A stretch of 64,000 nt of DNA, taken from Armatimonadota bacterium (GTDB lineage Bacteria > Armatimonadota > SYMT01). A program made the translations under genes and the position numbers. The DNA is taken from positions 832,001-896,000 of the forward strand of contig JAWLHY010000003.1 of NCBI GenBank assembly GCA_041690135.1. Direction: 5' to 3'. Below, one piece after another: positions 16,021-57,087 of this stretch. The notes below the pieces were generated by a model. The model saw nothing but the letters and a program-made list of their open reading frames with translations. It was not told the origin of the DNA and ran no database searches. Within the stretch, counting starts at the first letter, position 1; every line of letters starts with the position of its first letter.

Positions 16021-16894
16021 GTGATCGTTCACCCTGACTGCGCACGGCGTGGTGCGAACACAAAAGCTTGATCCGGTTTGGCCGTGTAACCTCATCCCCG
16101 CCACCCAGAGGGTGCCCCCCACCCAAAGGGTGCCCCCCACCCAAAGGGTGCCCGGTCCGACGCAGAGAGGGGCTATCGGTGTGTGCCCAATCCGGCGGTG
16201 CAATTTCCAGAGATGCCGTCGGCTACGACTGCCGACGTCCTGAACTTCCACCAAGCCTCAGCGCAACCGTGACCGTGGAGTCTGCGAAGACCAACACCAT
16301 TCCTCTACTGCGCGAGGGCTTCCCCCTTCTCTGCGTCGGAGAAGTTTACGCCCCGCGGGGGTGGGGGACCGAGGGGGATGAGGTTACTACGGGCGCCGCA
16401 GCCGTGGATGATAATGGACCAGCGCCTTGTAGAATCCAGGTGGAACGCTGGATGTCGTGTTCGGTCCACCCCCACGTGCGTGGGTACCCATTTCCGTGGC
16501 CGTTCACCTCGACGGCACACAACGGGGTGCGGATTACAAGGTCTCGGTCCGGTTTGGCCGTGGAATCTCACCCCAACCCCTCTCCGACGCAGAGAGGGGC
16601 TATCGGCTCGGACACAGTCCGGCGGTACACACACCGGAGATACCGTGAGCTACGACCGCCGAAGTTCTGATCGCCCATCGCTTCGCCCATTCGCGAGCGT
16701 GACCACGCCTCCTGCAAAAGACAAGATTCACTCCGTTCTGAACACGGGCTTCCCCCTTCTCTGTGTCGGAGAAGTTTACGCCCCGCGGGGGTGGGGGATT
16801 GAGGGGGATGAGGTTACCACGGCCACCGAAGCCATTAGCGGTGTCGCACTCCAAGCCTTCCCGACCCCTGGTAAACCGCTGGTTGTCGTGTCGG
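16021..16894 (-). repeat. Trailer extension of array 3: two homologous ~405-440 nt palindromic units separated by a degenerate repeat (16462-16489)
   Basis: Shared blocks TCCGGTTTGGCCGTG, TCCGACGCAGAGAGGGGCTATCGG and GGGCTTCCCCCTTCTCTG...GAGGGGGATGAGGTTAC in both units; internal inverted repeats. Confidence 0.85.
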
Positions 16895-18155
16895 CAGTCT
16901 ACCCCCACGTGCGTGGGGACAAGGGCCACGCCCGCTTCCACCTTCACCACGTAGATCGGTTCACCCCCACGTGCGTGGGGACAAGGGCCACGCCCGCTTC
17001 CACCTTCACCACGTAGATCGGTTCACCCCCACGTGCGTGGGGACAACGCGATCTCATCCATCGTCGCTTCAGCCACCAGCGGTTCACCCCCACGTGCGTG
17101 GGGACAACAGGACCGGAACATCCAGCGTGCGGGCCAATACCGGTTCATCCCCACGTGCGTGGGGACAAGCACGCTTCCCAGGCGGCCTTCCGTTCCTCAA
17201 CCGGTTCACCCCCACGTGCGTGGGGACAAGCTACTCGGATAGCAACGTGACGCTGGGCCGCTTCGGTTCACCCCCACGTGCGTGGGGACAAGTCAGGCGA
17301 TCCTCAGGTGGGAGCCGCGCTCCACGGTTCACCCCCACGTGCGTGGGGACAAGTCCGGAATCCCACTCTTCCGGCGCCCCATGGTCCGGTTCACCCCCAC
17401 GTGCGTGGGGACAAGCTGTGCGACCACCTGCGCACCGCCGTATTCATCGGTTCACCCCCACGTGCGTGGGGACAAGAGTGGGTCCAACAGGCTCGTCTCC
17501 GCGCTCACCGGTTCACCCCCACGTGCGTGGGGACAAGCTGGCGCTCACGCTGGAGGTATAGGACATCAACTGGTTCACCCCCACGTGCGTGGGGACAAGG
17601 CGTAGGAGAGGGGCTGGAAGCCCGGCCACGTCTTGCCGGTTCACCCCCACGTGCGTGGGGACAAGGCAAACCGCCCGCGAACCGCCGCCGCCGTCCGCGG
17701 TTCACCCCCACGTGCGTGGGGACAAGATGACGTTCCTCGCGACGATCCATCAGGGACTCGGTTCACCCCCACGTGCGTGGGGACAAGCCCCCTGCCCTGC
17801 GGTTCGGGGTCGGTGTGGTACGGTTCACCCCCACGTGCGTGGGGACAAGCCTGCGGCCTGCAGAGCTGTTTTGGGCAGATACGGTTCACCCCCACGTGCG
17901 TGGGGACAAGGCGATGGCCTCCCGTGGGGAGTTGCAAAACTCCGGTTCACCCCCACGTGCGTGGGGACAAGGAGATGAGATCCGTAGAGAATACCGTGAC
18001 CTACGGTTCACCCCCACGTGCGTGGGGACAAGTTCTCGCCGTTCAGCGCGTATCCGCTCGCGTCCGGTTCACCCCCACGTGCGTGGGGACAAGGGTACCG
18101 GGTTGTCTTCCCTTCCCCCCGCTTTACGGTTCACCCCCACGTGCGTGGGGACAAG
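16895..18155 (-). CRISPR. CRISPR array 3 (same repeat as array 1), 21 repeats / 20 spacers
   Basis: CGGTTCACCCCCACGTGCGTGGGGACAAG repeats from 16895 (degenerate) to 18127; leader AGCAAACTTAGCGTTTGC at 18156. Confidence 0.99.
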
Positions 18156-18488
18156 AGCAAACTTAGCGTTTGCAGGTTCCGGCGGGCGGAAGCGGCGGGA
18201 GAGTAGTCGAAATCTCCTTCGGCAGCGGCCAGCCCGGCACCTGCCGGGAGAAATAGTTGTCGTCCGCCCGCAGAACCAGGCCTTCCAGGAACTTGAATCC
18301 TACCGGAGCACCCGCGAACCGCCGCGCTCGGACCTTCTTCCCCTTCTTCTGTTCCCCTTCTTCCGTTCCCCTTCTTCCGCCCACCTCTTCCGCTGCCCTT
18401 CTAACGCCCCCCCTTCTTCCGTTCCCTTTTCCGCGCCTTTCCGCGTGTTCCGCGGGCAATAACCCGTCCCCCTCTTCCGCAGTCGTGT

Positions 18489-18950
18489 TCAGGAAACTGC
18501 CGGGGTCTCGGCGGTAGCCAGGCCGGTTGGGGGATGGGAGAGGAGAAAGTCCTCCACGGCGGCGACCAGGGCGGGCTTCTCGCGCTCCACGGCGTTGGTC
18601 ACCCACTCGCCCCAGCCGGACTCCCGCAGTTCGCGCACGAAGTCGTCGCGCAGCCAGGCCACGGCCCGGCGGGCGCAGTCTTCCCACTCGGCGGCGGTGA
18701 GGCGCTTCCCCATCTCCGCCAGGTCGGTGCGGATCTCCACCGGGACCTCTACCGCCTCGTTCATCCGGGGGGTCTGGGTGTGGTGGTGCGGCTCGATGGC
18801 GAAGCAGTCGATCCGGCCCAGGTCGAGCAGCACGCCGGAGCGGCCGTCCAGCACGAAGCGGCAGACCGGACCCCCGTTGGCGCCGCCGCGCTGCGCTCCC
18901 GTAAACAAGATCACCCGGCCGTACTGGCCCACCGGTTGTTCCCCAAACAT
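18489..18950 (-). CDS. Hypothetical protein (153 aa) upstream of the array 3 leader
   Basis: ATG with AAGGAG RBS, GC-rich third positions; no recognised domain. Confidence 0.7.
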   Translation of the reverse strand: MFGEQPVGQYGRVILFTGAQRGGANGGPVCRFVLDGRSGVLLDLGRIDCFAIEPHHHTQTPRMNEAVEVPVEIRTDLAEMGKRLTAAEWEDCARRAVAWLRDDFVRELRESGWGEWVTNAVEREKPALVAAVEDFLLSHPPTGLATAETPAVS

Positions 18951-19110
18951 GGTGCTCCTTTGCTTCCGTGTACGTCGTCTGGATTGCGTCACCTACCCAC
19001 GGGCAATGCCGGTGTGGCTGCAAGCTGCTTCCTCGTTTGACGAGCGATGTTACCCCTGATAGAATGCATCCGAACCCACCTGGCGGCCTGCTCGATCCCG
19101 GAGAATGTTC

Positions 19111-20820: not shown

Positions 20821-20868
20821 CCAGCCCATGTGGCCCCCGGTTCATGCGGAGATCCTTCCCAGCCGTCC

Positions 20869-35228: not shown

Positions 35229-35595
35229 CAACATCTCCCTGCAAAAGACAAGAGCCCGGGACGGCCTGCAACAATAAAAGCCACGCAGTTGCGTGGCTCT
35301 CCGGGTCACAGGAACGACGGCCGCCTTCCTCGGCAGCCTTGCGGGATCCTGCGTACTCTTCGCGCCACGCCGACGAGGTTAGCTGACGGGCTCGGGCCGG
35401 AAGAGTCTGGCCCGTTCCAGGCAAGCCTGGAATTCGCCCCAACGACTTGGGTCCCCCGTTCCCCCAGTGGGATTAGGCGTTCTGTTATGGGGTCTCCGGG
35501 CGTTTTCACTTCATGCGACGCCCGGCTTGTCCCTACGTTATAAGTCTACCCTCCCCGGTTGTACACCGGTTCCCCCTTCGTGACTCCCGTCACAA

Positions 35596-39191: not shown

Positions 39192-40823
39192 CTAACTGCC
39201 GGGGGAGCGCAGACGGCGCGTATGTCCCGTAGCCGTGGTGTCCGTGCCCAGGAGGGAGCGAACCACGAGATCGATGCGGGGGTGGACGTACTTCCGGAGT
39301 GTCTCCTGAAGGATCTCCACCTGCCGCGGCTGGAGTTGGCTGGGAGTGCGGGCGGTGGCCAGCACGAAGAGGCGGTTCCCCCGCTCTTCCAACTGAAGCT
39401 CCGCGAGGTAAGCGCCGTCCACCTGGAGGCGAAGCTGGTTATCCAGCGCGGCCTCCAGCCGTTTCCTCCGCCGCAGTTCTCGGTCCGAGAGGCGGGGCGC
39501 TTCTTTCACCGGCTCGTACAGATAGCGGTCGGCATCCGCGTCACGAGTGAGGATGGAGCGGATCACCAGCCGGATGCGCAGCCCCGTCTCGCGCCGGAGC
39601 GCCTCCTGAATACGCGCCACGTCGGCCGGACTGATGGCCGTGGGGGTGCGGACCAGGGCTGTCATTCCCTCTTCGGCGCCGCCATCCGAGGGGGGATCCC
39701 GGCGCAGGTCCGCGAGTTGCGCGCCCGGGAGACCCCGGAGCTCGTCCTGGATCGTGCGCGTGGCCTGGGTGAGGAACGCCGTCTGGGCCTGGGCTTCCTC
39801 CCGCCGGCGCCGTTCCGAGTCGGTGATGAAGACCGGTCCGGTGCGGTCCGCGTCCCGCGAGATGAGCGAGCGCACCACGAGGTGGATCCGGGGATCGACC
39901 CGGTCGCGCAGGTTCTCTTCCATCTGCAGGACCTGCTCCGGCTCGAAGGCTTGCGGGGTGAGCACGGCGGCGATCACATCCAGGCCGGTCGCCCCCCGGA
40001 GCATGCGTACCTCGGAAAGGTGTGCTCCCGCGATCGCCTGCACCTGTTGGTCGAGATTGCGCTCGATGGCCGCCGTCACTCGCCGGTTGGAGATGATGCG
40101 GACCAGCGACTCGGTCATGAACCCGGAAACCACGACCAGTAGCAGCAGACTGAGCCGGAAACGCTGGAATACCCACGCGTAAAGGGAGATGCCCGGTTGG
40201 GGGACCTCCGCCAGGCCCGCCAGGGTGAAGACCAGCGCCGCGGCGATTTCGATGGCCAGGAAGTTGGCGAAGAAGAGCAGGAAGGCCCCCCAGGCCATCT
40301 GCCACTCCCCGGCCGAGAGGCAGAGGCCGCTGGTAGCGAGCGGCGGTACCAGGGCCGTGGCAATGGCGACGCCGGGCATGGCGGGGCTGATCTTCCGGTT
40401 GGTGAGCGCGTACGCGCCCGCCAGGCCGGACAGGATGGCGATCAGTACGTCGTAGATGGTGGGCTGGGTGCGGCCCAGGATCTCGGAGCCGAACTCGGGG
40501 CGCAGCGGCAGCCGGCCGATCAGGAATCCGAGGCCGAGGGCCAGCAGCACTCCCAGGACCTCCGCCATGCCGGCCCGGCCGAGCAGGCGACGCTCCCCTG
40601 TGCAGAGGGCGAGGGCGATGCCGAAGATGGGCCCCATCAGCGGGGCGATGAGCATGGCGCCGATGACCACCGCCGTGCTGTTGGCCAGCAGACCGAAGGC
40701 GGCGATGGAGGTGGAGAGGAGCACCAGCAGATAGAAGGAGCGGTTGGGGCTCGCCAGGTCCACAAGACCCTGGTAGACCTGCTCCCGTTCTTCTCCCTCC
40801 AGCCTGAAAGAAACCGCCTTCAT
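39192..40823 (-). CDS. DUF389 (TIGR00341) membrane protein with repeated C-terminal domains
   Basis: NSTAVVIGAMLIAPLMGPI, EILGRTQP, PGVAIATALVPPL, LFFANFLAI. Confidence 0.9.
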   Translation of the reverse strand: MKAVSFRLEGEEREQVYQGLVDLASPNRSFYLLVLLSTSIAAFGLLANSTAVVIGAMLIAPLMGPIFGIALALCTGERRLLGRAGMAEVLGVLLALGLGFLIGRLPLRPEFGSEILGRTQPTIYDVLIAILSGLAGAYALTNRKISPAMPGVAIATALVPPLATSGLCLSAGEWQMAWGAFLLFFANFLAIEIAAALVFTLAGLAEVPQPGISLYAWVFQRFRLSLLLLVVVSGFMTESLVRIISNRRVTAAIERNLDQQVQAIAGAHLSEVRMLRGATGLDVIAAVLTPQAFEPEQVLQMEENLRDRVDPRIHLVVRSLISRDADRTGPVFITDSERRRREEAQAQTAFLTQATRTIQDELRGLPGAQLADLRRDPPSDGGAEEGMTALVRTPTAISPADVARIQEALRRETGLRIRLVIRSILTRDADADRYLYEPVKEAPRLSDRELRRRKRLEAALDNQLRLQVDGAYLAELQLEERGNRLFVLATARTPSQLQPRQVEILQETLRKYVHPRIDLVVRSLLGTDTTATGHTRRLRSPGS

Positions 40824-41231
40824 TCCCTATCCTCTGGTGCGATGGTGCGAGAGTTCCCGACCCTGAACGGTCGGGCTTTAGTAAAGCACGCTGCCACACC
40901 CCCTCGGGGCGCAAGCCTCCGTGGGCGCCCGGTCCGCGTACAAAGCGCCGACAGAATCACAGGACGAAGCGTGCGGGCAATAGGCGCGGAAGTATACGCG
41001 CCTAGCCGAAAATGGGGAGCCCCAAAGTGTACTCTGGAAGCAGTCCTGTCGCATCCCAGGCAACACAGCACGCGAGCCACTCCTTTTAGAGATCGGCATT
41101 AACGCACCTTCGGTTTGTACTTTGCGGGCGGGTCTCCCTCCCCGGACTGTTGGAACCGGGCGGATCTGGGTAACCGGCGACTGGGCTGAGGACCACTGCG
41201 AGGCGAGGGTTCACGGTCGAAGGAGAGCAAG

Positions 41232-41849
41232 TTGATGGAAGAACGAAGAGAGCGAGAGATGATCGACCGGGATGAATACGGTACCGTGGAGGATGCGGGG
41301 CGCAAGGGTGGGGCGGTAGCGGCGGGAACAGCGCCCGCCCATCCGCGGGCGCTGCCGGAGGTGTGGCCTTACGCCCTGAACTGGAAGAGCGCCTTTGCCG
41401 CGGGCTTCCTCGCCACGGCAGCGCTCACCCTGATCCTCTACTTCCTGCCACCCCTGTTCGGTTACCCGCCGATGAACGTGGCGCAGCAGTTGGGCTCCTT
41501 CATCGCGTTGGAGACCCGCAATATCTTCTGGGCCGGGATGCTGTGGCACCTCGCCAACGGCATTTTCTTCACGGTCGTTTACGCCTGGGTCCTGTTAAAG
41601 GCCCGCACGCAGAGTGACGCGAAGACGGGCGCTGTGTTCGGGGCGGTGGTCTGGCTTCTGGCGATGATCCTGATGCCGGTCATGATGGCGTTCCATCCGC
41701 AGGTGCGAGCCGGCGTGATGGCGAACCCCGGCTTCTTCCTGCGCGGTCTCGATCCCGGGCTCGGCCTGGCGATGCTGGACCTGTTCGCTCACCTGGTGTT
41801 CGGCATTCTCGCCGGTGTGATCTACAAGCACCGCGAAGCCTGTGAGTGA
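41232..41849 (+). CDS. Membrane protein (4-5 TM)
   Basis: Hydrophobic helices with WHLANG and AHLVFG motifs; start uncertain. Confidence 0.7.
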   Translation: MMEERREREMIDRDEYGTVEDAGRKGGAVAAGTAPAHPRALPEVWPYALNWKSAFAAGFLATAALTLILYFLPPLFGYPPMNVAQQLGSFIALETRNIFWAGMLWHLANGIFFTVVYAWVLLKARTQSDAKTGAVFGAVVWLLAMILMPVMMAFHPQVRAGVMANPGFFLRGLDPGLGLAMLDLFAHLVFGILAGVIYKHREACE

Positions 41850-42097
41850 AGACAGGAACGGATAAGGACCGAGGGGGCAAAGGTAAGAATTTTTACAATT
41901 AGGGGCGGGATGAAGACCGAGGGATGAGGAGGGATAGAGACAAAGCTGGTCCGACTTGGGTGCGGTTGAGAGTCGGATTAGAGACAGAGCATCACCATGC
42001 AATCGCATCCTGATTGAGGGTTGTGCGTTGAGAAAGGGAGATCCGGGGCCGGGCATGTTACCATGACCCGGTTCAGCCCTTCCAACGGAGCCCTGTG

Positions 42098-43099
42098 ATG
42101 CCTGTCTGGTTGATCTTCCTTCTCAGTGCCGCCGCCGTGATCCTCGCGGGCTCCCGTCTCAGCCGGGATGGGGACGTGCTGGCGGAGGTGACCGGTCTCG
42201 GCGGGGCCTGGGTCGGCGCGATCCTGGTGGCGGGTATCACCTCGCTGCCGGAGCTGGCTACCGATATCTACGCGGTCAACGACGGCGAGCACGGCCTGGC
42301 GGTGGGCGATCTCTTCGGGTCCTGCATGGCCAACTTGCTGATCCTCGCGGTGGCCGACCTTTCCACGCGCCAGGTCCGCGTGTTGACCCGGGTCGCCATC
42401 AACCAGGTCCTGGTGGGCCTGCTGGGCGTGGCGCTCCTGGCCCTGGCCGCGGCGGGGATTTTGGCGCACTTCGACTTTGCCGTGTTCGGCCTGGGATGGG
42501 CGACCCTGGCGATCGGCATTGCCTATGTGTTGGGAATGCGCCTGCTTCACGTGAACCGCGGCGAAGCGGCACCTTTCGAAGGTCACGCCGAGACGGCGGA
42601 TGGCCCAGACGCGGGGCGCCGGAACGCCTTACGCGGGGCGGCGATCGGCTTTGTGTTGGCGGCGCTCGTCATCCTGTTTGCGGCCCGCTACCTGGCCAGC
42701 TCCGCCGCCACGATCGCCCAGCAGTTGGGAATCTCCAGCGGCTTCGTGGGGATGGTGCTGCTGGCGGTGACCACCTCGCTGCCGGAAGTGACCGTCTCCA
42801 TCGCCGCCGTGCGGTCGGGCTCCTACGACCTGGCCGTGGGTAACCTGCTCGGCAGCAACTGCTTTAATATGGCCATCCTCTTCGTGCTGGACCTGGTGGA
42901 CGGTCCCGGACCGCTCCTCGCGCATGTGGGGCCAGGGCTGACCATCGGCGCGCTGTTCGCGATCCTGCTTTCGGTGCAGGCCCTGATGGGGGTGCTGAAC
43001 AAGTCGGAGAAGCGGATCTGGTTCCTGGAGCCGGACGCCGTATTCCTCGTGCTGACCTATGCCGCGGGCCTTTACCTGGTGTACCGCGTCGGACACTGA
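42098..43099 (+). CDS. Sodium:calcium antiporter (CaCA family)
   Basis: Two alpha repeats, ITSLPE/TTSLPE and GDLFGS..AN/GNLLGSN. Confidence 0.92.
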   Translation: MPVWLIFLLSAAAVILAGSRLSRDGDVLAEVTGLGGAWVGAILVAGITSLPELATDIYAVNDGEHGLAVGDLFGSCMANLLILAVADLSTRQVRVLTRVAINQVLVGLLGVALLALAAAGILAHFDFAVFGLGWATLAIGIAYVLGMRLLHVNRGEAAPFEGHAETADGPDAGRRNALRGAAIGFVLAALVILFAARYLASSAATIAQQLGISSGFVGMVLLAVTTSLPEVTVSIAAVRSGSYDLAVGNLLGSNCFNMAILFVLDLVDGPGPLLAHVGPGLTIGALFAILLSVQALMGVLNKSEKRIWFLEPDAVFLVLTYAAGLYLVYRVGH

Positions 43100-43216
43100 A
43101 CGTCTAAACGTTTACAGGAGTGGGGTGGTGGACCACGACAGCGTATTCAGAGGGAACACCTCGCCTTGGCTGCGGACTATTTGAGCTAACGTCGAAGGCT
43201 GCGAGAGGGTAGCGAC

Positions 43217-44425
43217 ATGAAACGAGTCTCGATCCTCGCATGGGGGCTGGTAGTGGGAGCCATTGGCTGCGCACCCCAGCCGGAGACGGTGGGGGAGCTG
43301 GTGCTGGCGGTGGAAGCGCCGCCGTCCGATCCCGCGCAGGCCGCCGTGGTGCTGGAAGGCGCTGGAGTCACGGCGGTGCGAAAGCACCTCGGTAAGGAGC
43401 CTTCCCGCGAGGAGGTGGACCGGGTCTTCTACCTGGCGGTGCGGCCCGCGGGATCGGCCTCTGCGGAGGCTACTCCTCCGGTGCCGGTGATGGCCCGGCT
43501 GGAGTGGAGCGAGGCGCGGGTGCGGCTCGTTCCCCAGGCCTCTCTCACGCCTGGCCTGCGCTATGAGGCCGTGTTCGACGGCCCGCGCCTTTCCCCCGCG
43601 TTGCCCCGCCTGGCGGAGTCCTACATCGTACCGGAAGAGACACGGCGCTCGGAAGGGAAGATTACGGTGCTCCACCCCAACCGCCGGGAGTTACCGGCGA
43701 ACCAGTTGAAGTTCTACGTCCACTTCAGCCGGCCCATGGCGGAGGGTCATGCATTTCGGCACGCGCGCCTCCTGGATGCCCGCGGAGAGCCGATCGACCA
43801 GGCGTTCCGGGAAGTGGAGCTGTGGGAGGACAACCACCAGCGGCTGACCCTCTGGATCAACCCCGGTCGCACCAAGCGGGCCCTGGGACTGAGTGAATCA
43901 CTGGGTCCGGTGCTGGAAGCCGGCCGCGAGTACACGCTGGAGATCCGGCCCGGCTTCCCGGACAGCCGGGGCCGGAAGCTTTCGGAGGGGCTGCGGCACT
44001 CCTTCCGGACGACCGCGCACGACCGCACACAGCCGCAGACCTCCTCCTGGCGCATCGCCGCGCCTTCCCACGGCACCCGCGATCCATTGGAGGTTACTTT
44101 CGGCGAGCCCATGGACCACGCTCTGGCCGAGCGGGGCATCCGTGTTCTGGGGCCGGGGGATGTGGAAGTGCCGGGTACGCCGTACGTCTCTGAGGATGGC
44201 CTGCGCTGGACATTCGAGCCTGCCGGAGACTGGGCCGAGGGGGAGCACGTCCTCGTGGCTGCGGGGGAGATCGAGGACCTCGCCGGTAACAGCCTCTACC
44301 GGCCGTTCGAGACGGTGGCGGGAAAGGGCCCCCGACCGACTCCCACCCCGCCGGAGTTCCGATTGCCGTTCACTATCAGTGGAACGAAGGGGTCTTCACC
44401 ACGGAGTCACAGAGACCCGGAGTAG
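43217..44425 (+). CDS. Lipoprotein with Ig-like domains
   Basis: Lipobox AIGC; LPANQLKFYVHFSRPM, TFGEPMD, IEDLAGN. Confidence 0.75.
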   Translation: MKRVSILAWGLVVGAIGCAPQPETVGELVLAVEAPPSDPAQAAVVLEGAGVTAVRKHLGKEPSREEVDRVFYLAVRPAGSASAEATPPVPVMARLEWSEARVRLVPQASLTPGLRYEAVFDGPRLSPALPRLAESYIVPEETRRSEGKITVLHPNRRELPANQLKFYVHFSRPMAEGHAFRHARLLDARGEPIDQAFREVELWEDNHQRLTLWINPGRTKRALGLSESLGPVLEAGREYTLEIRPGFPDSRGRKLSEGLRHSFRTTAHDRTQPQTSSWRIAAPSHGTRDPLEVTFGEPMDHALAERGIRVLGPGDVEVPGTPYVSEDGLRWTFEPAGDWAEGEHVLVAAGEIEDLAGNSLYRPFETVAGKGPRPTPTPPEFRLPFTISGTKGSSPRSHRDPE

Positions 44426-44442
44426 ACCACGGGGGAGGGCGA

Positions 44443-44700
44443 TAAGGATCAAGATCAGGATAAGGATAAAGAATCCGGCTTCAGGACGGGTGCCCTGACC
44501 AGGGGGCGAGTGGATTAGGACTCGGAAGAGGATTAGGAGTTCCGCCGCAGGACGAGTTCCCTGACCAGGGGGCGGGATGGATTAGGACTACGATTAGGAA
44601 AAAGAGTCCCGGGTAAGGACGATTTCCCTGACCAGGGGGCGAGTGGATTAGGACCAGGATAAGGATTTGGGTAAGGTCGACTTCCCCGACCAGGGGGATG
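44443..44700. repeat. Four ~39-bp hairpin-containing direct repeats interleaved with GAT(T/A)AGG microrepeats
   Basis: Consensus AGGACGANTTCCCTGACCAGGGGGCGAGTGGATTAGGAC at 44483, 44549, 44616 and 44674 (partial). Confidence 0.75.
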
Positions 44701-45296
44701 GCCACGTCGCTTACCGGTTCTGGTACGCGTGGCTGGCCGCTTCGACGCCATACTCATCCGCTTCGGGGAAGTTGCTGCGGATCTATCGCTCCTCGCCATG
44801 ACGATCATGGTCACTGCCTGAATGCCTGACCGCCTGAATGCCTAATGCCCAATGCCCACCGCCCAACTCCCCTGGGAACCTGCCAGCCTGCTCCTGGGTC
44901 TAAGCAGGTAAGGGATTTCCCAGGGAGAGACGGTCGCACCCCCGAGCCTCCTAGCAAGCTTGCGGGTAAATGGGGGGTTTGATGTCGGTAGCCCTTTAGG
45001 AAATACCAAACGACAACCGATAACAGAATCAAGAGGAAAGAGGGAGGAGATTGCTCCTTTACTCACCTTGGTGATAAGGTCCGGGGTTGGTCTTCCGCCG
45101 CGCGCGAGGCCGGCGGGAATTTTCGGAGAACTGTTCGTTGTCATCACGGCGGAGCGGCGCCGGTGGCGGAGTCTCCCCACCGGTCCGCGCTTCCACCGGA
45201 TAAGGACATCTACAACACGGTCCACTACAACGGCTCTCCAGCCTGCCCCGGAGACCGGAGTGGGGAGCGTCGCTCCCCTAGAGAGGGCCTTGTACG

Positions 45297-45851
45297 ATGC
45301 CGGCACGGATATCCAACGACCACCCGATCCGCGAGTTGTTCAGTAGCCTGGTCCAGCGGACCTTCTACCGCCAGGTCGGCCTTTCCGAGCCTGCGCTCAC
45401 CCGCTATGTCGCGGACATGCTGGTCGATTTCACGCACCAGGACCAGGTGTACCGCATCCGGGATTCCCGTGGCCGCCGCCTGGAAGAGGTTGCGGAGATG
45501 ATGCTGGAGGGCGACGTCGCGTTGAACGCCACGTCCTTCGACCGGGAGCGGGAGGTCCATAAGCACATCGGGGACTTTACCCTGTTCTGGACGGGGGTGT
45601 ACCCGGAGATGCTGCGCCACTTCCGCGCCGCGACCCGTTCCGACCACCTGATCGACTACGTTTCCCAGGGCCGCAAGTCGTACCAGATCGCCTCGACCTT
45701 CGAGTACGGGCAGTACGCGGAAGAGGCGCCGGTGCTGCGGCGCCTCTCCGACCAGTTCGAGGTCTGCATGTATGGCCTGCACCTGGTCCGGAAGGAGTTG
45801 GAGACCTACGGAAGCCCGGAGATGCAGACGGTACGCCGGTTGCTCGATTAA
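45297..45851 (+). CDS. Hypothetical protein, probably conserved
   Basis: YVADMLVDF, REREVHKHIGDFTLFWTGVYPE, GRKSY; host codon usage. Confidence 0.8.
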   Translation: MPARISNDHPIRELFSSLVQRTFYRQVGLSEPALTRYVADMLVDFTHQDQVYRIRDSRGRRLEEVAEMMLEGDVALNATSFDREREVHKHIGDFTLFWTGVYPEMLRHFRAATRSDHLIDYVSQGRKSYQIASTFEYGQYAEEAPVLRRLSDQFEVCMYGLHLVRKELETYGSPEMQTVRRLLD

Positions 45852-46615
45852 TTGACGCCGATCTGCTTCTCCCGGTACTTTTCGTCCGGCCGGGTGAAGA
45901 TGCGGTCCACGTTGGCCTGCGTGAGGAAGTTCGGCCCGCCCAGCATCACGGTGCCCATCAGGATGCGGGCCGTCTTCACGTACATCGCGGTGGCGGTTTC
46001 GACTTCGGTTGAGCTCTTGCCGAGGGCGATGAGGCCGTGGTTCTGCATCAGGATAATGCGCGGGACGAGGTTGTGCTCCTGCATGTAGGCTTCCACGCGC
46101 GCCTTGATCTCCCGGGCCAGCGGCTGACCGGGATCGACGTAAGGCACGAAGACCGGCGCCGGGCCGCAGCAAACGATCTCGTCCGGAAAGAGGCGGCCGG
46201 AGACAGCCTCCTCCGCCATCCGCGAGCAGAGGACGGCGTTCACGGCGGTGGGGTGCGTGTGTCCGACCACGTTGATGCCGGGCAGGCTGAGCAGGTAGGC
46301 GTGGAACAGCGTCTCCACGGACGGACGCGTGGGCTGGAGCGGGTTGACACGGGCCTTCATCAACCCGTCCTTGATTTCGTCGTCGGTGAGCGACTCGCGG
46401 TCCAGCATCTCCAGGCAGGGAGCGCGGCGCACGCGGACGAAGCCGGTTTCGGTGATGTCCAGCAGGGAGAGGCCGGAGGCCTTTACGTAGAAGGTGGCGC
46501 CATCGACCCCGGTGCTGGTGTTCCCTTCACCCAGGATGACGTAGTCGTTGGCCGGGTCGGCCAGCCGGCGGCTCATGGCGACCACTTCGCGGAGGATCTC
46601 GTGAACGGTAGGCAT
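45848..46615 (-). CDS. Class II aldolase/adducin family protein
   Basis: GEGNTS, KASG, PSVETLFH, HTHP, QNHGL. Confidence 0.92.
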   Translation of the reverse strand: MPTVHEILREVVAMSRRLADPANDYVILGEGNTSTGVDGATFYVKASGLSLLDITETGFVRVRRAPCLEMLDRESLTDDEIKDGLMKARVNPLQPTRPSVETLFHAYLLSLPGINVVGHTHPTAVNAVLCSRMAEEAVSGRLFPDEIVCCGPAPVFVPYVDPGQPLAREIKARVEAYMQEHNLVPRIILMQNHGLIALGKSSTEVETATAMYVKTARILMGTVMLGGPNFLTQANVDRIFTRPDEKYREKQIGVN

Positions 46616-46722
46616 GGTGGACCTGATTGGTAGGGCAGGGCGGAAAGCCGTGACCGGAAAGCGGTATCGCGGAAGCGATAAAAGGAAGAGCGGGCAATAT
46701 CGAGTCTATCATAGGGGATACG

Positions 46723-47049
46723 ATGCCGTTCTTCGACCTGTCACAGCAACCGACCCGGGAGCTTTTCCCCGGCGTGACGCTCACCACCGCCTGGGGTGAC
46801 CGCATTATGATGTCGTTCGTCCACTTCCAGCACGCCGGCGCGGAAGTACCCACCCATCAACACCCCCACGAGCAGATGGGGATGGGCCTGGAAGGCGAGT
46901 TCGAGTTGATCATCGACGGCGAGAGCCGGATCATCCGCAAGGGGGATAGCTACTGCATTCCCGGCGGCACCCCGCACAGCGCCCGGAGCGTGAACGGTCC
47001 CGCCCGCGCCCTCGATATCTTCAGTCCCCCGCGCGAAGATTACATGTAA
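46723..47049 (+). CDS. Cupin domain protein
   Basis: HQHPHEQMG, IPGGTPHSA, DIFSPPREDY. Confidence 0.93.
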   Translation: MPFFDLSQQPTRELFPGVTLTTAWGDRIMMSFVHFQHAGAEVPTHQHPHEQMGMGLEGEFELIIDGESRIIRKGDSYCIPGGTPHSARSVNGPARALDIFSPPREDYM

Positions 47050-47272
47050 AGGTCAGGGCTCGCCGGCGGGGCCGGATGTCGTAGCCGTCGATGCCGGCCG
47101 TGCCGGAGGTGGGGTCCAGCAGGGTGGCGAGCATCCGCATCAGCGTCGTCTTGCCCGCCCCGTTTGGCCCCAGCAGTCCCAGCAGCCCGGAGTCGAGTTG
47201 CAGCGTCACCCCATCGACCGCCACGGCCTTGCCTTCGTAGATCTTGGTCAGCCCCTCGATGCGAACGCCCAT
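47021..47272 (-). pseudogene. Truncated ABC transporter ATP-binding protein (N-terminal fragment)
   Basis: Walker A GLLGPNGAGKTTLMRML..PTSG, after which similarity is lost past GYDI and the frame runs into the cupin gene. Confidence 0.8.
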
Positions 47273-47647
47273 GGTTTCCTGTCCCTCCGCACGGTCCGTA
47301 TCGGAGTAACAGTCGTTCGGGAGCGGGAAGGGGTTACGCGTCTTCAGAGAGTGCCCTGATAGCGGTCCGAAAGCATTGCCTCGGTCCGGCTGCCGGCCTC
47401 CCTCCCCGACGACCGGCGAGCCCGCACCCGAGTCGAGGTGCTCCCGACTCCGTAGGGCTATCGTCGTTCGCAGCAGGCGCGATCCCGGGCAGGACGGGTG
47501 GTTACCTCGCTGGCGGTGGAGCCCTTACGGACGCCGGCCGCCGGACGTGTTCGCGCGGGCTCGGGTTAACGTGACCTTTCGGCCCGGGAACCGTTGAAAA
47601 CCCGGACGGCGTTCCGTGTCGCCATCCGGATTTCAGTGGGGAATGGG

Positions 47648-47986
47648 ATGGAAGACACGCTTCTGATCTTCCTGTTCGGGGTCGCGGTGGTGATCTGGTG
47701 GGCCTTGGGTCCCGAGGGAAAGGTGCACTGGCTGTACGGCGCCGTACTGGGGCTAACCGGGCTGCAAGTCGTCTTTCGGGGTTGGACCAGCGAATACGGG
47801 GAGGACTTCCCACCCCACCCGTTCGGGTGGATCATCGTAGCTCTGGGTATCATCATGGCCTTCTGGGGCGAGCACGCGGCACAGCAGGATCGGGAACGCA
47901 CCATCCTGATGGACGGCGCCGCTCCCGCTCCTCCGCCGCGTCCCCGCCGTCCCCGGCGAGCACCCCGGTCCCGCCGGCGTAAGTAG
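47648..47986 (+). CDS. Small membrane protein
   Basis: Three hydrophobic segments and a basic tail. Confidence 0.65.
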   Translation: MEDTLLIFLFGVAVVIWWALGPEGKVHWLYGAVLGLTGLQVVFRGWTSEYGEDFPPHPFGWIIVALGIIMAFWGEHAAQQDRERTILMDGAAPAPPPRPRRPRRAPRSRRRK

Positions 47987-48080
47987 AGCCACTGAACCCT
48001 ACCCCTTTTCGATTGTCAGGTCCTGTTATACTCGGGGTAGTGGAATACCAGGCAGTATCTTCCGGATGAGGAGAGAAGTG

Positions 48081-48632
48081 ATGCTCACCCGGTCCAAAGC
48101 AACGATTGAAGATCTCTGCAACCTTCCCGACAACCGGAAGGCCGAACTGGTCAACGGAAAGCTCGTTTTCATCTTGCCGACGGGGGACGCACCCGGCTAT
48201 GCCGCCGATGAGATCTTCGTCTCGCTGCGGGATTATGCGAAGCGGACCGGGAGAGGGCGTGCGGTGGCGGACAACAAGGGGTTCCGCGTGCATCTGCCGC
48301 ACCGGGAGTCCTTCAGTCCGGATGCAGCTTACTACCTGGGCCCCCGGACCGGCATGCGGTTCTTCGAAGGGGCTCCCATCTTCGCGGTCGAGGCGCGCAG
48401 CGAAAACGACTACGGCCCCCAGGCCGAGTACGACCTGGCCCAGAAGCGAGCGGACTACTTCGCAGCGGGGACGCAGGTGGTCTGGGACGTTGATCTTCTG
48501 AGCGAGGACGTAGTCCGGGTTTATCGGGCAAGTGACCCCACCCGAGCGGTCATCTATCGGCGGGGTGACCTGGCGGAAGCGGAACCTGCCGTTCCCGGGT
48601 GGACCATGCCGGTAGATGATCTATTTGAATGA
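48081..48632 (+). CDS. Uma2 family (PD-(D/E)XK) endonuclease
   Basis: KAELVNG, SPDAAY, PIFAVEARS, KRADYFAAGTQVVWDVD, EPAVPGW. Confidence 0.9.
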   Translation: MLTRSKATIEDLCNLPDNRKAELVNGKLVFILPTGDAPGYAADEIFVSLRDYAKRTGRGRAVADNKGFRVHLPHRESFSPDAAYYLGPRTGMRFFEGAPIFAVEARSENDYGPQAEYDLAQKRADYFAAGTQVVWDVDLLSEDVVRVYRASDPTRAVIYRRGDLAEAEPAVPGWTMPVDDLFE

Positions 48633-48664
48633 CCCACGTAGAGTGGTCCAGGACGATTGGTGGG

Positions 48665-49123
48665 ATGAGCGCTACCCGAATTCAGTGCTTACTCGACGCG
48701 CCCCGTGACAAGGTCTACAACGCTTTGATCGACGCGAATGCCATCCCGCGGTGGAGGGTGCCGGAGGGGATGCGCTGCCACGTCCACACGTTCGAGGCGT
48801 GGGAAGGGGGCGCCTTCCGGGTCTCCCTGACCTATGACGCACCGACCGGTACGGGCAAAACGACCGCGCACACCGACACGTACCACGGCCGCTTCGTGGA
48901 GTTGGTGCCGAACGAACGGGTGGTGGAAGTGGTGGAGTTCGAGACGGACGATCCGGCGCTTCAGGGCGAAATGACCATTACCACCACGCTTGCGGATGCG
49001 GACGGCGGCACCGACCTAACCGCCGTGCATGAGGGACTGCCGCCCGGCGTGTCACCCGCGGACAACGAGTTGGGCTGGAAAATGTCGCTCGCGAAGCTGG
49101 CGGTGCTCGTAGAGGAAGGCTAA
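48665..49123 (+). CDS. SRPBCC/AHSA1 domain protein
   Basis: APRDKVY.A, GGAFRVSL, GRFVELVPNERVV, NELGWKMSLAKLA. Confidence 0.9.
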   Translation: MSATRIQCLLDAPRDKVYNALIDANAIPRWRVPEGMRCHVHTFEAWEGGAFRVSLTYDAPTGTGKTTAHTDTYHGRFVELVPNERVVEVVEFETDDPALQGEMTITTTLADADGGTDLTAVHEGLPPGVSPADNELGWKMSLAKLAVLVEEG

Positions 49124-49346
49124 AGGATTGCCGAAATGACCGTTGCGGCTGGGCGAGTGAACTCGCGCCTACAAAGGGCGAAGCCGACACCCCCTCGGGG
49201 CGTAAACCTCCGTCGGCTAGACACACTCGAGCGGTTATTCGTTGACAGATCCTAAGGGGCAGCCACGCACACACCAATTGTTTTGCGTCGCACACCCGGT
49301 AGGATCGTGCTACCCTTGGGAAGGCAGGCACCCGTTGGAGGGCGAT

Positions 49347-49526
49347 GTGCGTTTGATCATTGAGATCGATCAAGAAGAAGACGGGCGCTTCATTGCCGAG
49401 GTGGTCGACTTACCTGGCGTAGTTGCTTATGGCGAAACCAACGACGAAGCTCTCGCTCTCGTCCAGGCTCTCGCCCTCCGCGTGCTGGCAGAGCGGGTGG
49501 AAAACGGCGAGCCGCTTCCCCTCTGA
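49347..49526 (+). CDS. hicB: HicB-like antitoxin (orphan; no adjacent hicA)
   Basis: IEIDQEEDGRFIAEVVDLPGVVAYGETNDEA; GTG start with GGAGG RBS. Confidence 0.8.
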   Translation: MRLIIEIDQEEDGRFIAEVVDLPGVVAYGETNDEALALVQALALRVLAERVENGEPLPL

Positions 49527-49647
49527 CACCCGACGACCTCTGATTCCTCGTGAGACCTGGTAATCGCAACCCCTGACGCCACGACCGCCGACTACCATAT
49601 TGCTCCCGCAGATCGTCCGGGTCTGGCGAGCTACTGGGAGTTGGGAC

Positions 49648-50705: not shown

Positions 50706-50729
50706 TTTCGGGTCGTGTGGATGAAGAAG

Positions 50730-52966: not shown

Positions 52967-53088
52967 GCATGCCTCGTATCGCTCGCTATCGGGATCCAAG
53001 CCGAACCGTGGCAGTTCTGGCGCTGAATGGGACGCCTGAGTGTTAACGGATAGCTCCGAAGAATACCGGATGGGTATGGAGGTGAACG

Positions 53089-53424
53089 GTGGGTTCTGAT
53101 GGAGAGTGCCAGATTCTCGCATTCGTGGAAGTCGTGTGCCGGCGCCCCGCGATGTACACGCTCACTGGCACCTTTGGGGAAGCGGTCAGCTTCCTGGAAG
53201 GCTGGTACGGCGCCACTGCCCGGTATGGCAGCCATGCAGGTGCGGAACTTGCGGATCGGGAGTGGACCGGGTTTGGTTGCTGGCTCTCGGGAAAAATCGG
53301 GTCCACGGAGGACACCCGTGGAGCCATGCAAGCTCTGCGCCTCATGTGTCCCAACGATGACGCAGCATTCAGCAGAGCCCAGAGTCTGTACGAGGAATAC
53401 TTCAAGAGCCTCGAGAGGGACTGA
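53089..53424 (+). CDS. Small hypothetical protein (possible immunity family)
   Basis: RRPAMY...SFLEGW...FGCWL; GGAGG RBS upstream. Confidence 0.55.
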   Translation: MGSDGECQILAFVEVVCRRPAMYTLTGTFGEAVSFLEGWYGATARYGSHAGAELADREWTGFGCWLSGKIGSTEDTRGAMQALRLMCPNDDAAFSRAQSLYEEYFKSLERD

Positions 53425-53497
53425 CGGGCTCAATGGAGACTGGTTGGGTACGATTGACCGGTGATTCTGTTGGCAAGCTAAGGGCCTGGATTTACGG

Positions 53498-54358: not shown

Positions 54359-54625
54359 GGCGGGAGATTCCATCGGCAATCGCCGTCTTCGAGTACGACT
54401 CTCTGGAAGACCGCGAGGCCGATATCGCGCGCATCCTTCGCCTGCGGGAAGAAGAGGGTGGGACCGGCGAGGGGATCCTGCTGAACTGGATCTTCATGCC
54501 GCCGGGGAGCGTGCGCTGTTGAAGATGGGAGGGGTTATCACAGCTAGCACCGTTTGCCAGGGTTCAGGCAACATAATCTGGGAAGCATTCAACGCCGCAC
54601 TGGCGCTCCACAAGACCGAGGCACC

Positions 54626-54847
54626 ATGTCCGAACAAGCGACACAGATCCTGGAGCGTGCGCTCCGACTACCCCCTACCGACCGAGCAGAGGTCGTCGAG
54701 AAACTGCTTTGCAGCCTGGACCGTCCCGATGCGCACCTCGACGAGACCTGGGCGGAGGAGGTAGAGGCTAGAATTTCTGCCTATGAAGCGGGTCAGATCC
54801 AGGCGTTTGAAGCGGATGATGTTTTCGCGGAGCTAGACCACCAGTGA
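54626..54847 (+). CDS. Addiction-module antitoxin (TIGR02574-like)
   Basis: ALRLPPTDRAEVVEKLLCSLD...WAEEVEARI..YEAG; overlaps the toxin start. Confidence 0.88.
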   Translation: MSEQATQILERALRLPPTDRAEVVEKLLCSLDRPDAHLDETWAEEVEARISAYEAGQIQAFEADDVFAELDHQ

Positions 54848-55138
54848 GAATTCGCTTCCTCGCCCCGGCTCGCGAGGAGTTGCGGCAGGGCATTCTCTAC
54901 TACAACGGCCAGCGTGCCGGCCTCGGCCGGGAGTTTCGGGACGCAGTTCGTGCCGGTGTCCAGCGCATCCGCGAACACCCGCTTGCCTGGCATCCCCTGA
55001 GCGAGCACTCGGCGGCATTTGCTGCATCGCTTTCCTTACGGCATCATCTACCAGATCCGCGAGGATGAAATCCTGATTGTTGCGGTTGCGCATCTTCACC
55101 GTGAGCCAGAGTATTGGCAAGAACGGACCCAAGAGTAG
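54844..55138 (+). pseudogene. RelE/ParE-family toxin with a frameshift near 55007
   Basis: MRIRFLAPAREEL...HPLAW, then RRHLLHRFPYGIIYQ...IVAVAHLHREPEYW in a different frame; consistent with a 2-nt loss in CAC-ACT. Confidence 0.85.
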
Positions 55139-55843
55139 CTAGGAGCCGGCAGTTGGAACCGTTCCGGTGCCGTAGATGAAGAACCGCTCGGTGGTGCGGA
55201 CTTCCATTTGCAGACCATAGGTGGCCAGGCGGGACTGTAGCTCCTCGGGGTCGTAGTAAATCTTTACGATCCGGAATTCGCGGCCGTCGTTGAGGCGGCG
55301 GGTCGCCAGTAGCTCCTCCTCTTCGGGAAGAGGCTGGTCGAGCGGAGTACCCAGGGGCTCCCGGCGCGAATCAGCGAAGAAGAGCTTCCCACCCGGGCGC
55401 ACGGCACGCCGCAGCTTCGCCAGGAAGGGATCGAGCTGTTCCGGAGGCACGTGGGAGAGCCAGAAGCAGAAGACGGCTCCATCGTAAACCTCCTCCGGCT
55501 CCCAGTCGAAGAGATCGGCCTGGAGATACCGTACCCGCGGACTGTTGACGCGGTGCCGGTTGAGGGCCAGCATCTCCTCACTACCGTCGACCGCCGTCAC
55601 CCGGTCGGCCATCCGGCTCAGGGGCAGGGTCCAGTTTCCGGTCCCGCAGGCGATCTCCAGGACATGACCCGAGGGGCGCAGCCGTTCCAGGGCGTCATAC
55701 AGCTCCTGCCGCTCGTGGAACCACCGGGCATCCGACTCCGCGCCGCGTGCATAGCGTCCCCGCCGCTCCCACCACTCGTTGTATTCGGCGGCCCGGGCGT
55801 TGTAGTAGGCCTGCTGTTCCTGGAGATGCGTCTCGTCGATCAT
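55139..55843 (-). CDS. Class I SAM-dependent methyltransferase
   Basis: YYNARAAEY, VLEIACGTG, VDGSEEML, FWLSHVP, RPGG. Confidence 0.92.
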   Translation of the reverse strand: MIDETHLQEQQAYYNARAAEYNEWWERRGRYARGAESDARWFHERQELYDALERLRPSGHVLEIACGTGNWTLPLSRMADRVTAVDGSEEMLALNRHRVNSPRVRYLQADLFDWEPEEVYDGAVFCFWLSHVPPEQLDPFLAKLRRAVRPGGKLFFADSRREPLGTPLDQPLPEEEELLATRRLNDGREFRIVKIYYDPEELQSRLATYGLQMEVRTTERFFIYGTGTVPTAGS

Positions 55844-55996
55844 AGAGAAATCCGATAGGACTTTAGCGCGATGGGTCCTTTCAACGATACCTCATCCGAG
55901 ACGTTGTGCCCCGACTCCGTATACCGCTTGCGTAGGGGTCACGAACGGGCGCAGAACACGGAAAACGGATCGGGCGCGAGAGAGCGCGGTGCAAGG

Positions 55997-56491
55997 ATGC
56001 CCTGGAAAGTCATCGAGCGGCGCATTGGCAAGGCGGGTCCCCTCCACCGCCGCCAGGCCCGGCAGCGGGAGTGGGACCGCCAGTACGGCGAGGGCAACTG
56101 GGAGATTGGCTATGTCCTGGACGGGGAGTTCGTGACGCAGGAGACGGCCCTGGAGTCGGTCTACTACGCCAGTTACGAGCGGCACTTCCAGGACCACCCC
56201 GCGGACCTGGAGGAGTTGATCGGGTTAGCCCGGGTACTTCACAACCCCCACGCCGAAGCCACGACGGGAGTGGATCTCCAGGTCCCGGCGATCACGGACT
56301 ACCTAGACCGCCACGGCCTCACGCTCCTGGGCCGCGAGGTGGTGGACATCGGCTCCTGGCATGGCCAGGCATCGCACCCCGTCAGCATCCGCCTGAGCCC
56401 GCTGCAGATCCGGTGCGTGGTGGACCCAAAGTTGACCCTGGAGCAGTTCTGGCAGGAGCGGAAGTGCCTGGCCGTCTGGCAGGATGAATGA
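55997..56491 (+). CDS. Hypothetical protein
   Basis: Host codon usage, AAGG RBS; NPHAEATTGVDLQVPAI. Confidence 0.75.
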   Translation: MPWKVIERRIGKAGPLHRRQARQREWDRQYGEGNWEIGYVLDGEFVTQETALESVYYASYERHFQDHPADLEELIGLARVLHNPHAEATTGVDLQVPAITDYLDRHGLTLLGREVVDIGSWHGQASHPVSIRLSPLQIRCVVDPKLTLEQFWQERKCLAVWQDE

Positions 56492-56500
56492 GAAGGAATC

Positions 56501-56530
56501 AAAAAGCGCTCCGGACCGAGTCCGGAGCGC
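56501..56530 (-). terminator. Rho-independent terminator (also at 56955-56984 and 57409-57438)
   Basis: GCGCTCCGGAC-TCG-GTCCGGAGCGC followed by TTTTT on the minus strand. Confidence 0.85.
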
Positions 56531-56532
56531 GA

Positions 56533-56633
56533 TGCGGAAGGGGGGACTTGAACCCCCATGGATTTCTCCACACGCCCCTCAAACGCTTGCCCCCCCTCGG
56601 GGGGTAAACGTCTGCCAATTCCGCCACTTCCGC
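56533..56633 (-). pseudogene. tRNA-Leu-derived copy with a 19-nt hairpin insertion
   Basis: Matches the tRNA at 57441-57522 except for an insert GTTTACCCCCCGAGGGGGG and GCGCA>GCAAG at the anticodon stem (101 vs 82 nt). Confidence 0.9.
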
Positions 56634-56923
56634 TATTCTGGAAACTCGGTGCACCGGGTCCCGTGCTCCCGCATGTAGGCTTCCTTCTCGGCGCGGGTGT
56701 GGTGTTTGAACCAGCTCTCCAGCCGGCGCGCGGCCGGGGCATCGGGCTGGACCTCATACCAGAGGAGCGTCACCGGCAGGTGCATCCGGGTGATCGTCGG
56801 GCCACGCCCCGCCTGGTGCTCCCGAACCCGTTCTTCCAGCCGCTGCGTGATGCCGGTGTAGTAACGCCCGTCCGCCAGCAACAGCACGTAGACGTACCAC
56901 ACGGGGGAGGGGGCTTCGCTCAT
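56633..56923 (-). CDS. Small GIY-YIG nuclease (96 aa), copy 2
   Basis: WYVYVL..ADGRYYTGIT..LEERVREHQAG.G...T...P..L.WYE......ARRLE..FK. Confidence 0.92.
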   Translation of the reverse strand: MSEAPSPVWYVYVLLLADGRYYTGITQRLEERVREHQAGRGPTITRMHLPVTLLWYEVQPDAPAARRLESWFKHHTRAEKEAYMREHGTRCTEFPE

Positions 56924-56986
56924 CGGAACTCGAGATGAAGGGGTCGGTGGAATCAAAAAGCGCTCCGGACCGAGTCCGGAGCGCGA

Positions 56987-57087
56987 TGCGGAAGGGGGGA
57001 CTTGAACCCCCATGGATTTCTCCACACGCCCCTCAAACGCTTGCCCCCCCTCGGGGGGTAAACGTCTGCCAATTCCGCCACTTCCGC
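56987..57087 (-). pseudogene. tRNA-Leu-derived copy with a 19-nt hairpin insertion
   Basis: Same sequence as 56533-56633. Confidence 0.9.

Follow-up and report, generated by a model that had tools for sequence, protein, structure and literature searches.

A 19-nt REP-like micro-element nested inside resident hairpin repeats of an Armatimonadota genome, with HUH Y1 transposases as its candidate engine

Insertion sequences of the IS200/IS605 family are inserted in one orientation 3' of a short fixed word. They make no target duplication, leave seamless empty sites and carry hairpin ends. Repetitive extragenic palindromes (REPs) are a second group of hairpins linked to single-strand enzymes. In E. 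coli, the TnpA-REP enzyme is guided by a GTAG that lies at the hairpin's 5' foot, and the A and G of this word base-pair with the C↓T at which cleavage takes place (PMC3479197). This enzyme is capable of strand transfer, and the same account describes the mechanism of REP propagation as still unclear (PMC3479197). In Thermomicrobium roseum, GTAG-23 REPs sit within small palindromes, CCGSSCC(n3,4)GGSSCGG, of which unoccupied copies are abundant (Di Nocera et al. 2013, PMC3733652). Here, we describe a 19-nt hairpin from an Armatimonadota bacterium (GenBank assembly GCA_041690135.1; 9.1 Mb in 25 contigs). It was found in a stretch of 64,000 nt, called the window, which covers positions 832001 to 896000 of contig JAWLHY010000003.1 (C3:832001-896000). 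In its behaviour, the 19-mer ranked with the smallest known mobile elements. Positions with a C number refer to contigs and all others to the window; an arrow marks a junction.

The consensus 19-mer, GTTTACGCCCCGAGGGGGT, was searched with up to three mismatches. An original prediction, made from the letters of the window, had placed the hairpin at six sites. All six were found where predicted, on the predicted strand, and had 0 to 2 mismatches; the window contained no other match. In 100 dinucleotide-preserving shuffles of the window, the pattern matched 0.07 times on average and at most once, and no shuffle reached six. The whole assembly gave 110 matches: 39 were exact, 22 had one mismatch, 26 had two and 23 had three. 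The reversed pattern gave 0 matches in the assembly at the same threshold, so that the genome-wide enrichment expected by the prediction was borne out. These counts confirmed that the 19-mer is real and strongly over-represented in the genome. The 19-mer has an unpaired head of 6 nt (GTTTAC or GCTTGC) and, 3' of it, a small G+C hairpin whose stem is 5 to 7 bp long. The copies were single except at three places, where six copies stood as direct tandem pairs joined by GGGT↓G; inverted-doublet pairing was absent among the 110. Rfam gave no match at the 19-mer sites, either in the whole window at gathering scores or in 40500-49600 at E values up to 1.

Empty sites were found by searching the genome with the left and the right flank (40 nt each) of every copy as independent queries and looking for places where both flanks abut. 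Flank pairs lay at distance 19 in 143 cases and at distance 0 in 65 cases, the latter corresponding to 52 unique zero-gap junctions. A few pairs lay at distances of 17-20, 34, 35, 46 and 49. Paralogous empty sites existed in every larger host family. Three families of host repeats (A, B and C) were aligned as contiguous genomic stretches, excluding rows with longer fills or with another element nearby. The filled rows numbered 9 of 41 in family A, 11 of 20 in family B and 8 of 12 in family C. In all three families, filled and empty rows differed by exactly 19 columns (42 to 60), and the flanks aligned on both sides. The claim that removal of 19 nt restores the host structure was confirmed by paralogous empty copies in three contexts (families A, B and D). 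The empty form was AGCCGACGGAG↓GTCGGCT for family A at 49.2 kb (for example at C1:367255) and GCGCCCACGGAG↓GTGGGC for family B at 40.9 kb. For family D at 16.3 and 16.8 kb it was ...GGAGAG↓GGGG, with empty related hairpins for example at C2:489867 and C11:219724.

The junction followed a simple rule. It was nearly always NNAG↓G, with A at position -2 in 97 of the 110 copies, G at -1 in 87 and G at +1 in 99. The commonest 5' tetramers were GGAG (24), GCAG (17), AGAG (10), GAAG (9) and GTAG (9). The rule RGAN, which had been proposed before, fitted the four contexts of the window, and NNAG↓G took its place for the 110 copies of the genome. The host flanks of at least seven families shared only 3 to 5 bases. 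No duplication was present at the junctions, as had been predicted, and the only remaining ambiguity was a register of 1 nt (G). This ambiguity arises because the insert begins with G and a G comes after the insert. The terminal inverted repeats and fixed-length target duplication that mark a miniature inverted-repeat transposable element were not observed.

The four distinct sites of the window were all intergenic. The consensus form of the 19-mer lay at 49189..49207 (-), where it followed the GGAG in the loop of the family A repeat at 49148..49220 (-). This REP-like host was built of the stem AGCCGAC/GTCGGCT, a GGAG loop, a linker and a second hairpin, GCGAGTTCACTCGC, and stood 3' of an AHSA1-like gene and 5' of a CdiI-like gene. 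The GCTTGC head variant at 40898..40916 (-) likewise followed the GGAG of the loop in a REP-like repeat of family B at 40856..40932 (-), GCGCCCAC-GGAG-GTGG(G)C followed by a linker and the hairpin CCCGACC..GGGTCGGG. This repeat separates two divergent genes, one of the DUF389 type (-) and one of the DUF6789 type (+). The copy at 16344..16362 (+), GTTTACGCCCCGCGGGGGT, split the 3' arm of an 11-bp hairpin of family D, TCCCCCTTCTC...GAGAA↓GGGGGA. Its duplicate at 16774..16792 (+) was in the second of two units of about 430 nt, which were 92% identical over 88 nt at a spacing of 430. Each unit ended in a degenerate repeat (16455 and 16888) of a CRISPR array, at the trailer end of this type I-E array. 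The two copies were rightly predicted to be duplicates, since they represent one event that was copied along with the unit.

The CRISPR system itself gave several side observations. The window carried a type I-E CRISPR-Cas system with arrays at 79-2397 and 16455-18160 and, between them, cas genes at 3222-15950 (-) for Cas3, Cse1, a Cas7-type CT1975 protein and Cas1; the arrays thus stood on both sides of the cas genes. The repeat was GCTTGTCCCCACGCACGTGGGGGTGAACCG on the - strand. At its trailer end, the second array had two "spacers" of about 430 nt that were filled with repeat elements. The CRISPR repeat (17019-18160) and the 19-mer with the GCTTGY head (40898-40916) had both ends in common, GCTTG.CCCC ... 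GGGGGTG. Its stem CCCAC/GTGGG was also the stem of the family B repeats and of a second micro-module described below, which may be due to chance in a G+C-rich genome. The idea that the 19-mer is a solo CRISPR repeat was rejected, as the 19-mer and the 30-nt repeat have only the ends in common and the copies of the 19-mer lie dispersed.

The Y1 transposase family PF01797 had nine matches in the genome. An NCBIfam scan of five Y1 proteins assigned three to the IS200/IS605 type (58 to 77 bits, cut-off 55) and two to the REP-associated tyrosine transposase (RAYT) type (103 and 104 bits, cut-off 80). The Y1 genes of the assembly included one at C1:627745-628215 and two of RAYT type at C1:749149-749709 and C23:415-906. 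The IS200-type Y1 gene at C11:209599-210033 was surrounded by family B/C repeats in alternating orientation, four of them empty and two filled. The Y1 gene at C2:54539-54973 had inverted family E repeats on both sides, all empty. The RAYT-type genes were flanked by multi-copy hairpins preceded by ACGGAG or GGTAG. In a relative from another family (G028; L031, 1340-1480 and 1925-2000), inverted repeats flanked the gene of a 49%-identical IS200-type TnpA. These repeats consisted of a stem, a GTAG or GAGG loop, a return stem, a linker and the hairpin GCGAGTTCACTCGC, as in families A and E. The presence of the same architecture in another family indicated that the host repeat type is old and that the 19-mer is a later arrival.

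The 19-mer was located directly 3' of a GNAG tag, in the loop of a hairpin or at its foot. The tag belongs to the host and not to the 19-mer, because it is present at empty sites. The hosts are therefore repeats of REP type with ties to Y1 genes, and they carry GNAG as a tag. The original prediction had tentatively ascribed the mobilisation to a neighbouring GIY-YIG nuclease and had named an association with a HUH (histidine-hydrophobic-histidine) transposase as the finding that would speak against it. The latter was found, as the hosts flank Y1 genes of IS200 and RAYT type.

The distribution of filled copies within the host families was analysed with trees of about 100 columns, from which the insert columns had been removed. 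The number of changes in filled state was 9 in family A, 6 in family B and 3 in family C, compared with means of 8.37, 6.83 and 3.49 for shuffled labels. The filled copies were thus scattered on the host trees. This fits many separate gains or losses, and not the amplification of one filled progenitor.

Longer inserts were present at the same junctions. The pattern search gave 27 of these, 14 of which were 35 nt long and 19 of which had AG↓G flanks; a few are probably false. The inserts of about 35 and 49 nt had the same head, in most cases GTTTAC(G/A)CCC, and ended in ...GGG(T/C). Inside, the 35-mers carried another hairpin, GGGTACCCAC-GGAG-TGGGTGT, and the 49-mers showed a further level of nesting. 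Constant ends around a changing interior are as expected of sequences that are mobilised through their ends. A sister subfamily of the form [G/A]TTTACC[C/A]CCC-NNN-GGG[G/T]GG (GTTTACCCCCC...GGGGGG) had 58 copies. It sat between the units of 8-nt arrays of the ACCYGAAC type, and its 5' flank was GAAC (28), CAAC (12) or GAAT (10).

Several smaller observations belong to the same group of repeats. Three copies of the sister subfamily formed a 27-nt tandem (19 + 8) at C2:219781-219860. The second micro-module, CCGGGTACCCAC-NGAG-TGGGTGTGGG, was present alone inside family A and D repeats (C2:1244450, C2:237535, C18:138319 and others) and also as the interior of 35-nt inserts that keep the GTTTAC head. 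The second hairpin of family A had 15 extra columns (the GGGCACCCACTTGTGGGTC region) in three copies (C3:802646, C14:80077 and C9:186920), and that of family C had 19 extra columns in one copy (C11:124261). An abundant repeat on the same hairpin (GCCCCCGAGGGGGG) was located at C1:108767 and about 77 related sites within arrays of the TCCAAC type, some with CTTTAG heads.

The heads were surveyed in 147 hairpins of the form [G/A/C]CCCC-N3-GGGG[G/T] that were preceded by a head xNTTNy. Head positions 2 and 5 were T-A in 122 of the 147, C-G in 18 and otherwise in 7. Positions 1 and 6 were G-C in 102 and A-C in 34. A third head, CTTTAG, swaps the outer pair and was present in 13 copies among all hairpins of this form. 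The two complementary pairs around TT are suggestive only; they may form a mini-stem, or a guide/cleavage pairing (G↓T, variant G↓C) as in TnpA-REP.

Coding sequences were also entered. Four copies of the main form were located in frames resembling rearrangement hotspot (RHS) genes near the ends of contigs C11 and C12 (C11:1638, C11:6478, C12:283423 and C12:283691). Each caused a +1 frameshift, by which the upstream frame ended at TAG and the downstream part gained an in-frame ATG. The homologous position was empty in related repeats of the same RHS-like genes. Such frame-breaking copies are as expected of selfish DNA.

The 19-mer was then compared with other genomes. At two mismatches or fewer, this genome had 87 copies and 0 matches to the reversed control. 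Among 40 relatives (6 of the same family and none of the same genus), 38 had no match and 2 had a single match. A degenerate pattern spanning both subfamilies gave 84 matches here and one match each in 2 of 400 other genomes of the phylum. The exact 19-mer was present in one stretch among species-representative genomes, in a Clostridiales record of 38% G+C, and in four single copies on metagenome contigs of 39 to 53% G+C without repeat context; these two scans may not include close relatives of this genome. The isolated matches outside this genome were taken as chance. The 19-mer is lineage-specific and confined to one genome among those searched.

These properties place the 19-mer close to described systems. 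It resembles the REP, bacterial interspersed mosaic element (BIME) and REPIN-RAYT systems in being a short G+C hairpin with a conserved unpaired 5' head, present in more than 100 mostly intergenic copies in a genome with HUH Y1 genes (PMC3116915, PMC3479197). The adjoining GNAG tag also resembles the GTAG guide described in these papers (PMC3116915, PMC3479197). However, it is only 19 nt long and has its own head, GTTTAC, GCTTGC or CTTTAG, instead of GTAG. It also forms no inverted doublets, brackets no RAYT gene and sits at a fixed base inside other REP-type repeats. The closest single precedent is GTAG-23 of T. roseum, also a REP-type hairpin in a pre-existing palindrome, with empty targets common and a G+C-rich genome (PMC3733652). 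That report is a one-sentence remark without junction analysis, whereas here the tag occurs in several repeat families, the junction is base-exact and longer variants share the ends (PMC3733652). The lists of REP families and RAYT alignments that accompany Di Nocera et al. 2013 might already contain related elements. The likeness to IS200/IS605 lies in the orientation-specific insertion 3' of a fixed word, the absence of a target duplication, the seamless (paralogous) empty sites and the hairpin. The differences are the single hairpin, the length of about 19 nt instead of hundreds, and a strand bias that was not detected. Dispersed repeats of 21 to 27 nt in Nostoc punctiforme were reportedly described by Elhai et al. 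in 2008 as resembling mobile elements and as often nested in one another. They differ from the 19-mer in phylum and sequence. The 19-mer was filed as a variant akin to REP/REPIN and IS200/IS605 and as a member of neither family, because there was no bracketing RAYT gene, no doublet and no pair of distinct ends.

Based on the above results, the 19-mer is best read as a REP-like, non-autonomous micro-element that is moved in trans, most likely by a HUH Y1 transposase. We put the probability of this reading at roughly 55%. The general view of the original prediction, namely a REP-like micro-element with present or past mobilisation in trans, was upheld by the copy number, the identical copies, the exact edges, the empty sites, the conserved ends and the scattered filled copies. 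Transposition instead of another form of copying, the enzyme and a single-stranded DNA substrate are what we infer. Integration would take place in one orientation, without target duplication and directly 3' of an A-G(-G) tag. This tag would be the GNAG of resident REP-type repeats, by which the 19-mer would come to be nested inside other structured repeats. The engine would be a single-strand cut-and-rejoin reaction, carried out in trans by a HUH Y1 transposase of the genome (IS200/IS605 TnpA or RAYT type). A Y1 enzyme was favoured because of the fixed word and orientation, the absence of duplication, the seamless empty sites, the hairpin with an unpaired head, the Y1-associated hosts and the identity of the target with the host tag.

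Several results weighed against this reading. The 19-mer has one hairpin and not the two different end hairpins of IS200/IS605. It bracketed 0 of the 9 Y1 genes, and 1 of the 9 had copies within 1.5 kb, namely two on one side, nested in B/C repeats. A full-length parent with the same ends was not found, as 62 candidate starts proved to be ordinary sequence or degraded short forms. Strand was not associated with local GC skew (37/28/27/18, Fisher p = 0.84), in an assembly of 25 contigs with weak skew. IS200-type TnpA homologues were present in 22 of the 40 relatives, yet the motif was present in this genome only. The alignment of flanks, by which the prediction proposed to find empty sites, did yield them, and all were paralogous and none orthologous. 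The host trees were poorly resolved, which alone pushes the change counts toward the shuffled values. The C-G state of the head may be one double change inherited by 18 copies.

A more specific form of the micro-element can be put forward tentatively. The insert might be a hyperparasitic micro-REP of 18 to 19 nt that has its own guide/cleavage pair in the head (positions 1-2 with 5-6) and hijacks the GNAG guide of REPs by inserting between the tag and the hairpin. If so, one genome would show how REP hairpins are born and spread by insertion 3' of GTAG-type tags. It would also provide a minimal and designable substrate for a HUH Y1 transposase.

Movement by a different enzyme, either a hairpin-targeting site-specific recombinase or a CRISPR-linked activity, was judged unlikely. 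It would agree with the lack of a Y1 gene bracketed by the 19-mer. It would also agree with the ends that the 19-mer with a GCTTGY head has in common with the local type I-E CRISPR repeat, and with the two copies at the trailer end of the array. However, the target is the GNAG tag of Y1-tied repeats, and the missing target duplication argues against an integration of the Cas1-Cas2 or DDE type. An IS91-type Y2 transposase (PF04986) had no match in the genome, in a search whose control genomes were equally silent.

Copying without any transposition of its own appeared improbable. The 19-mer would then be passed between repeats by gene conversion or microhomology-mediated copying, and filled repeats would be amplified. 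A CGNAG...G around the site was common to most hosts, families B and C, which were most often filled, are related to each other, and duplication of larger units accounts for four or five copies of family D close to CRISPR arrays and for both tRNA copies described below. However, the same insert was present in at least seven host families with so little shared flank, in RHS-like coding sequence and, in its sister form, in a tRNA gene. Its edges were base-exact in every family, and the filled copies did not cluster on the host trees.

A module that is kept by selection where it is useful, for example as a hairpin that binds protein or stabilises RNA, was regarded as very improbable. The intergenic position of the four distinct window sites would suit it, and in predicted folds the host stem was still able to close around the insert. 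However, the 19-mer was confined to this lineage, its orientation relative to neighbouring genes varied, it had no Rfam match and it broke reading frames and a tRNA copy. Function would also leave the arrival of identical copies at unrelated sites unexplained.

The tRNA-borne copies were members of the sister subfamily. The insert GTTTACCCCCCGAGGGGGG lay at 57045..57063 (-) in a copy of tRNA-Leu(GAG), between the D arm and the anticodon stem, and an identical second insert lay at 56591..56609 (-) via tandem duplication. The two interrupted tRNA copies, at 56987..57087 (-) and 56533..56633 (-), were each 101 nt long and identical, and neither ARAGORN nor Rfam called a tRNA in them. The intact tRNA-Leu(GAG) at 57439..57523 (-) served as the empty reference; one further tRNA-Leu(GAG) was called elsewhere in the genome. 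The unit that carries the intact tRNA (435 nt) and the one that carries an interrupted tRNA (454 nt) were identical except for a replacement of GCGCA by 24 nt. Removal of the insert therefore restored the length (101 to 82 nt), as had been predicted, but not the sequence, since 3 of the 5 bases after the insert differed. The two copies were an identical duplicate pair and one event, as expected, but they did not represent the main form. In a fold predicted with RNA energy parameters, the insert and the 3 changed bases formed a 15-bp hairpin that included the anticodon stem.

Two small GIY-YIG open reading frames (ORFs) were the neighbours of these copies, at 57087..57377 (-) and 56633..56923 (-). 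They encoded identical proteins of 96 aa. The order across 56533-57523 was tRNA - GIY-YIG - interrupted tRNA - GIY-YIG - interrupted tRNA, and the stop codon of each GIY-YIG ORF overlapped the first base of the next tRNA copy. This region looks as if a 454-bp unit of tRNA plus ORF had been integrated repeatedly or multiplied by unequal crossing-over. The GIY-YIG domain PF01541 had 5 matches in the genome; two were the identical ORFs of the window, and the others had no 19-mer nearby. The 96-aa protein matched the catalytic domain only and had no NCBIfam model. Homologues (45% identity or lower) were present in 6 of the 40 relatives, none of which had the motif beyond a single chance match, so that the proposed co-occurrence of nuclease and motif was not found. 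No tRNA gene lay beside the GIY-YIG homologues at the 8 loci scanned in the relatives. A single insertion into a tRNA copy and the later tandem duplication of a tRNA-plus-ORF unit account for the adjacency.

Mobilisation by the GIY-YIG nuclease next door, for which the two copies 24 nt downstream of a GIY-YIG stop codon would speak, is scarcely credible, since these 2 of the 110 copies are a single event in a 454-bp tandem duplication, the other 108 are near none of the 5 GIY-YIG matches, the 6 relatives with homologues are all without the motif, the protein is a bare catalytic domain, and the subfamily of the tRNA-borne copy has its 58 copies elsewhere in the genome in 8-nt repeat arrays.

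Two further features were recorded. At C4:52816-53509, three short tRNA-Leu calls (gag, tag and taa) of 74 to 76 nt were present, about 10 nt below the other Leu tRNAs (81-87 nt). The window also contained a cyclic di-AMP riboswitch aptamer at 35354-35489 (-) (RF00379, 94.4 bits).

The phenomenon is a striking one and lends itself well to experiments. Its kind is known, its empty sites are all paralogous, and the enzyme is one that we infer. The genome supplies a minimal unit in more than 100 copies, filled and empty sites that are defined to the base in several host families, the NNAG↓G rule, length variants that keep their ends, and compensatory heads. This material is sufficient for a direct biochemical test with the Y1 transposases of the genome itself. 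Such inserts can break genes, as in the tRNA copy and the RHS-like frames, and can pile up inside one another. They are therefore relevant to the annotation and assembly of repeat-rich genomes from uncultured bacteria.

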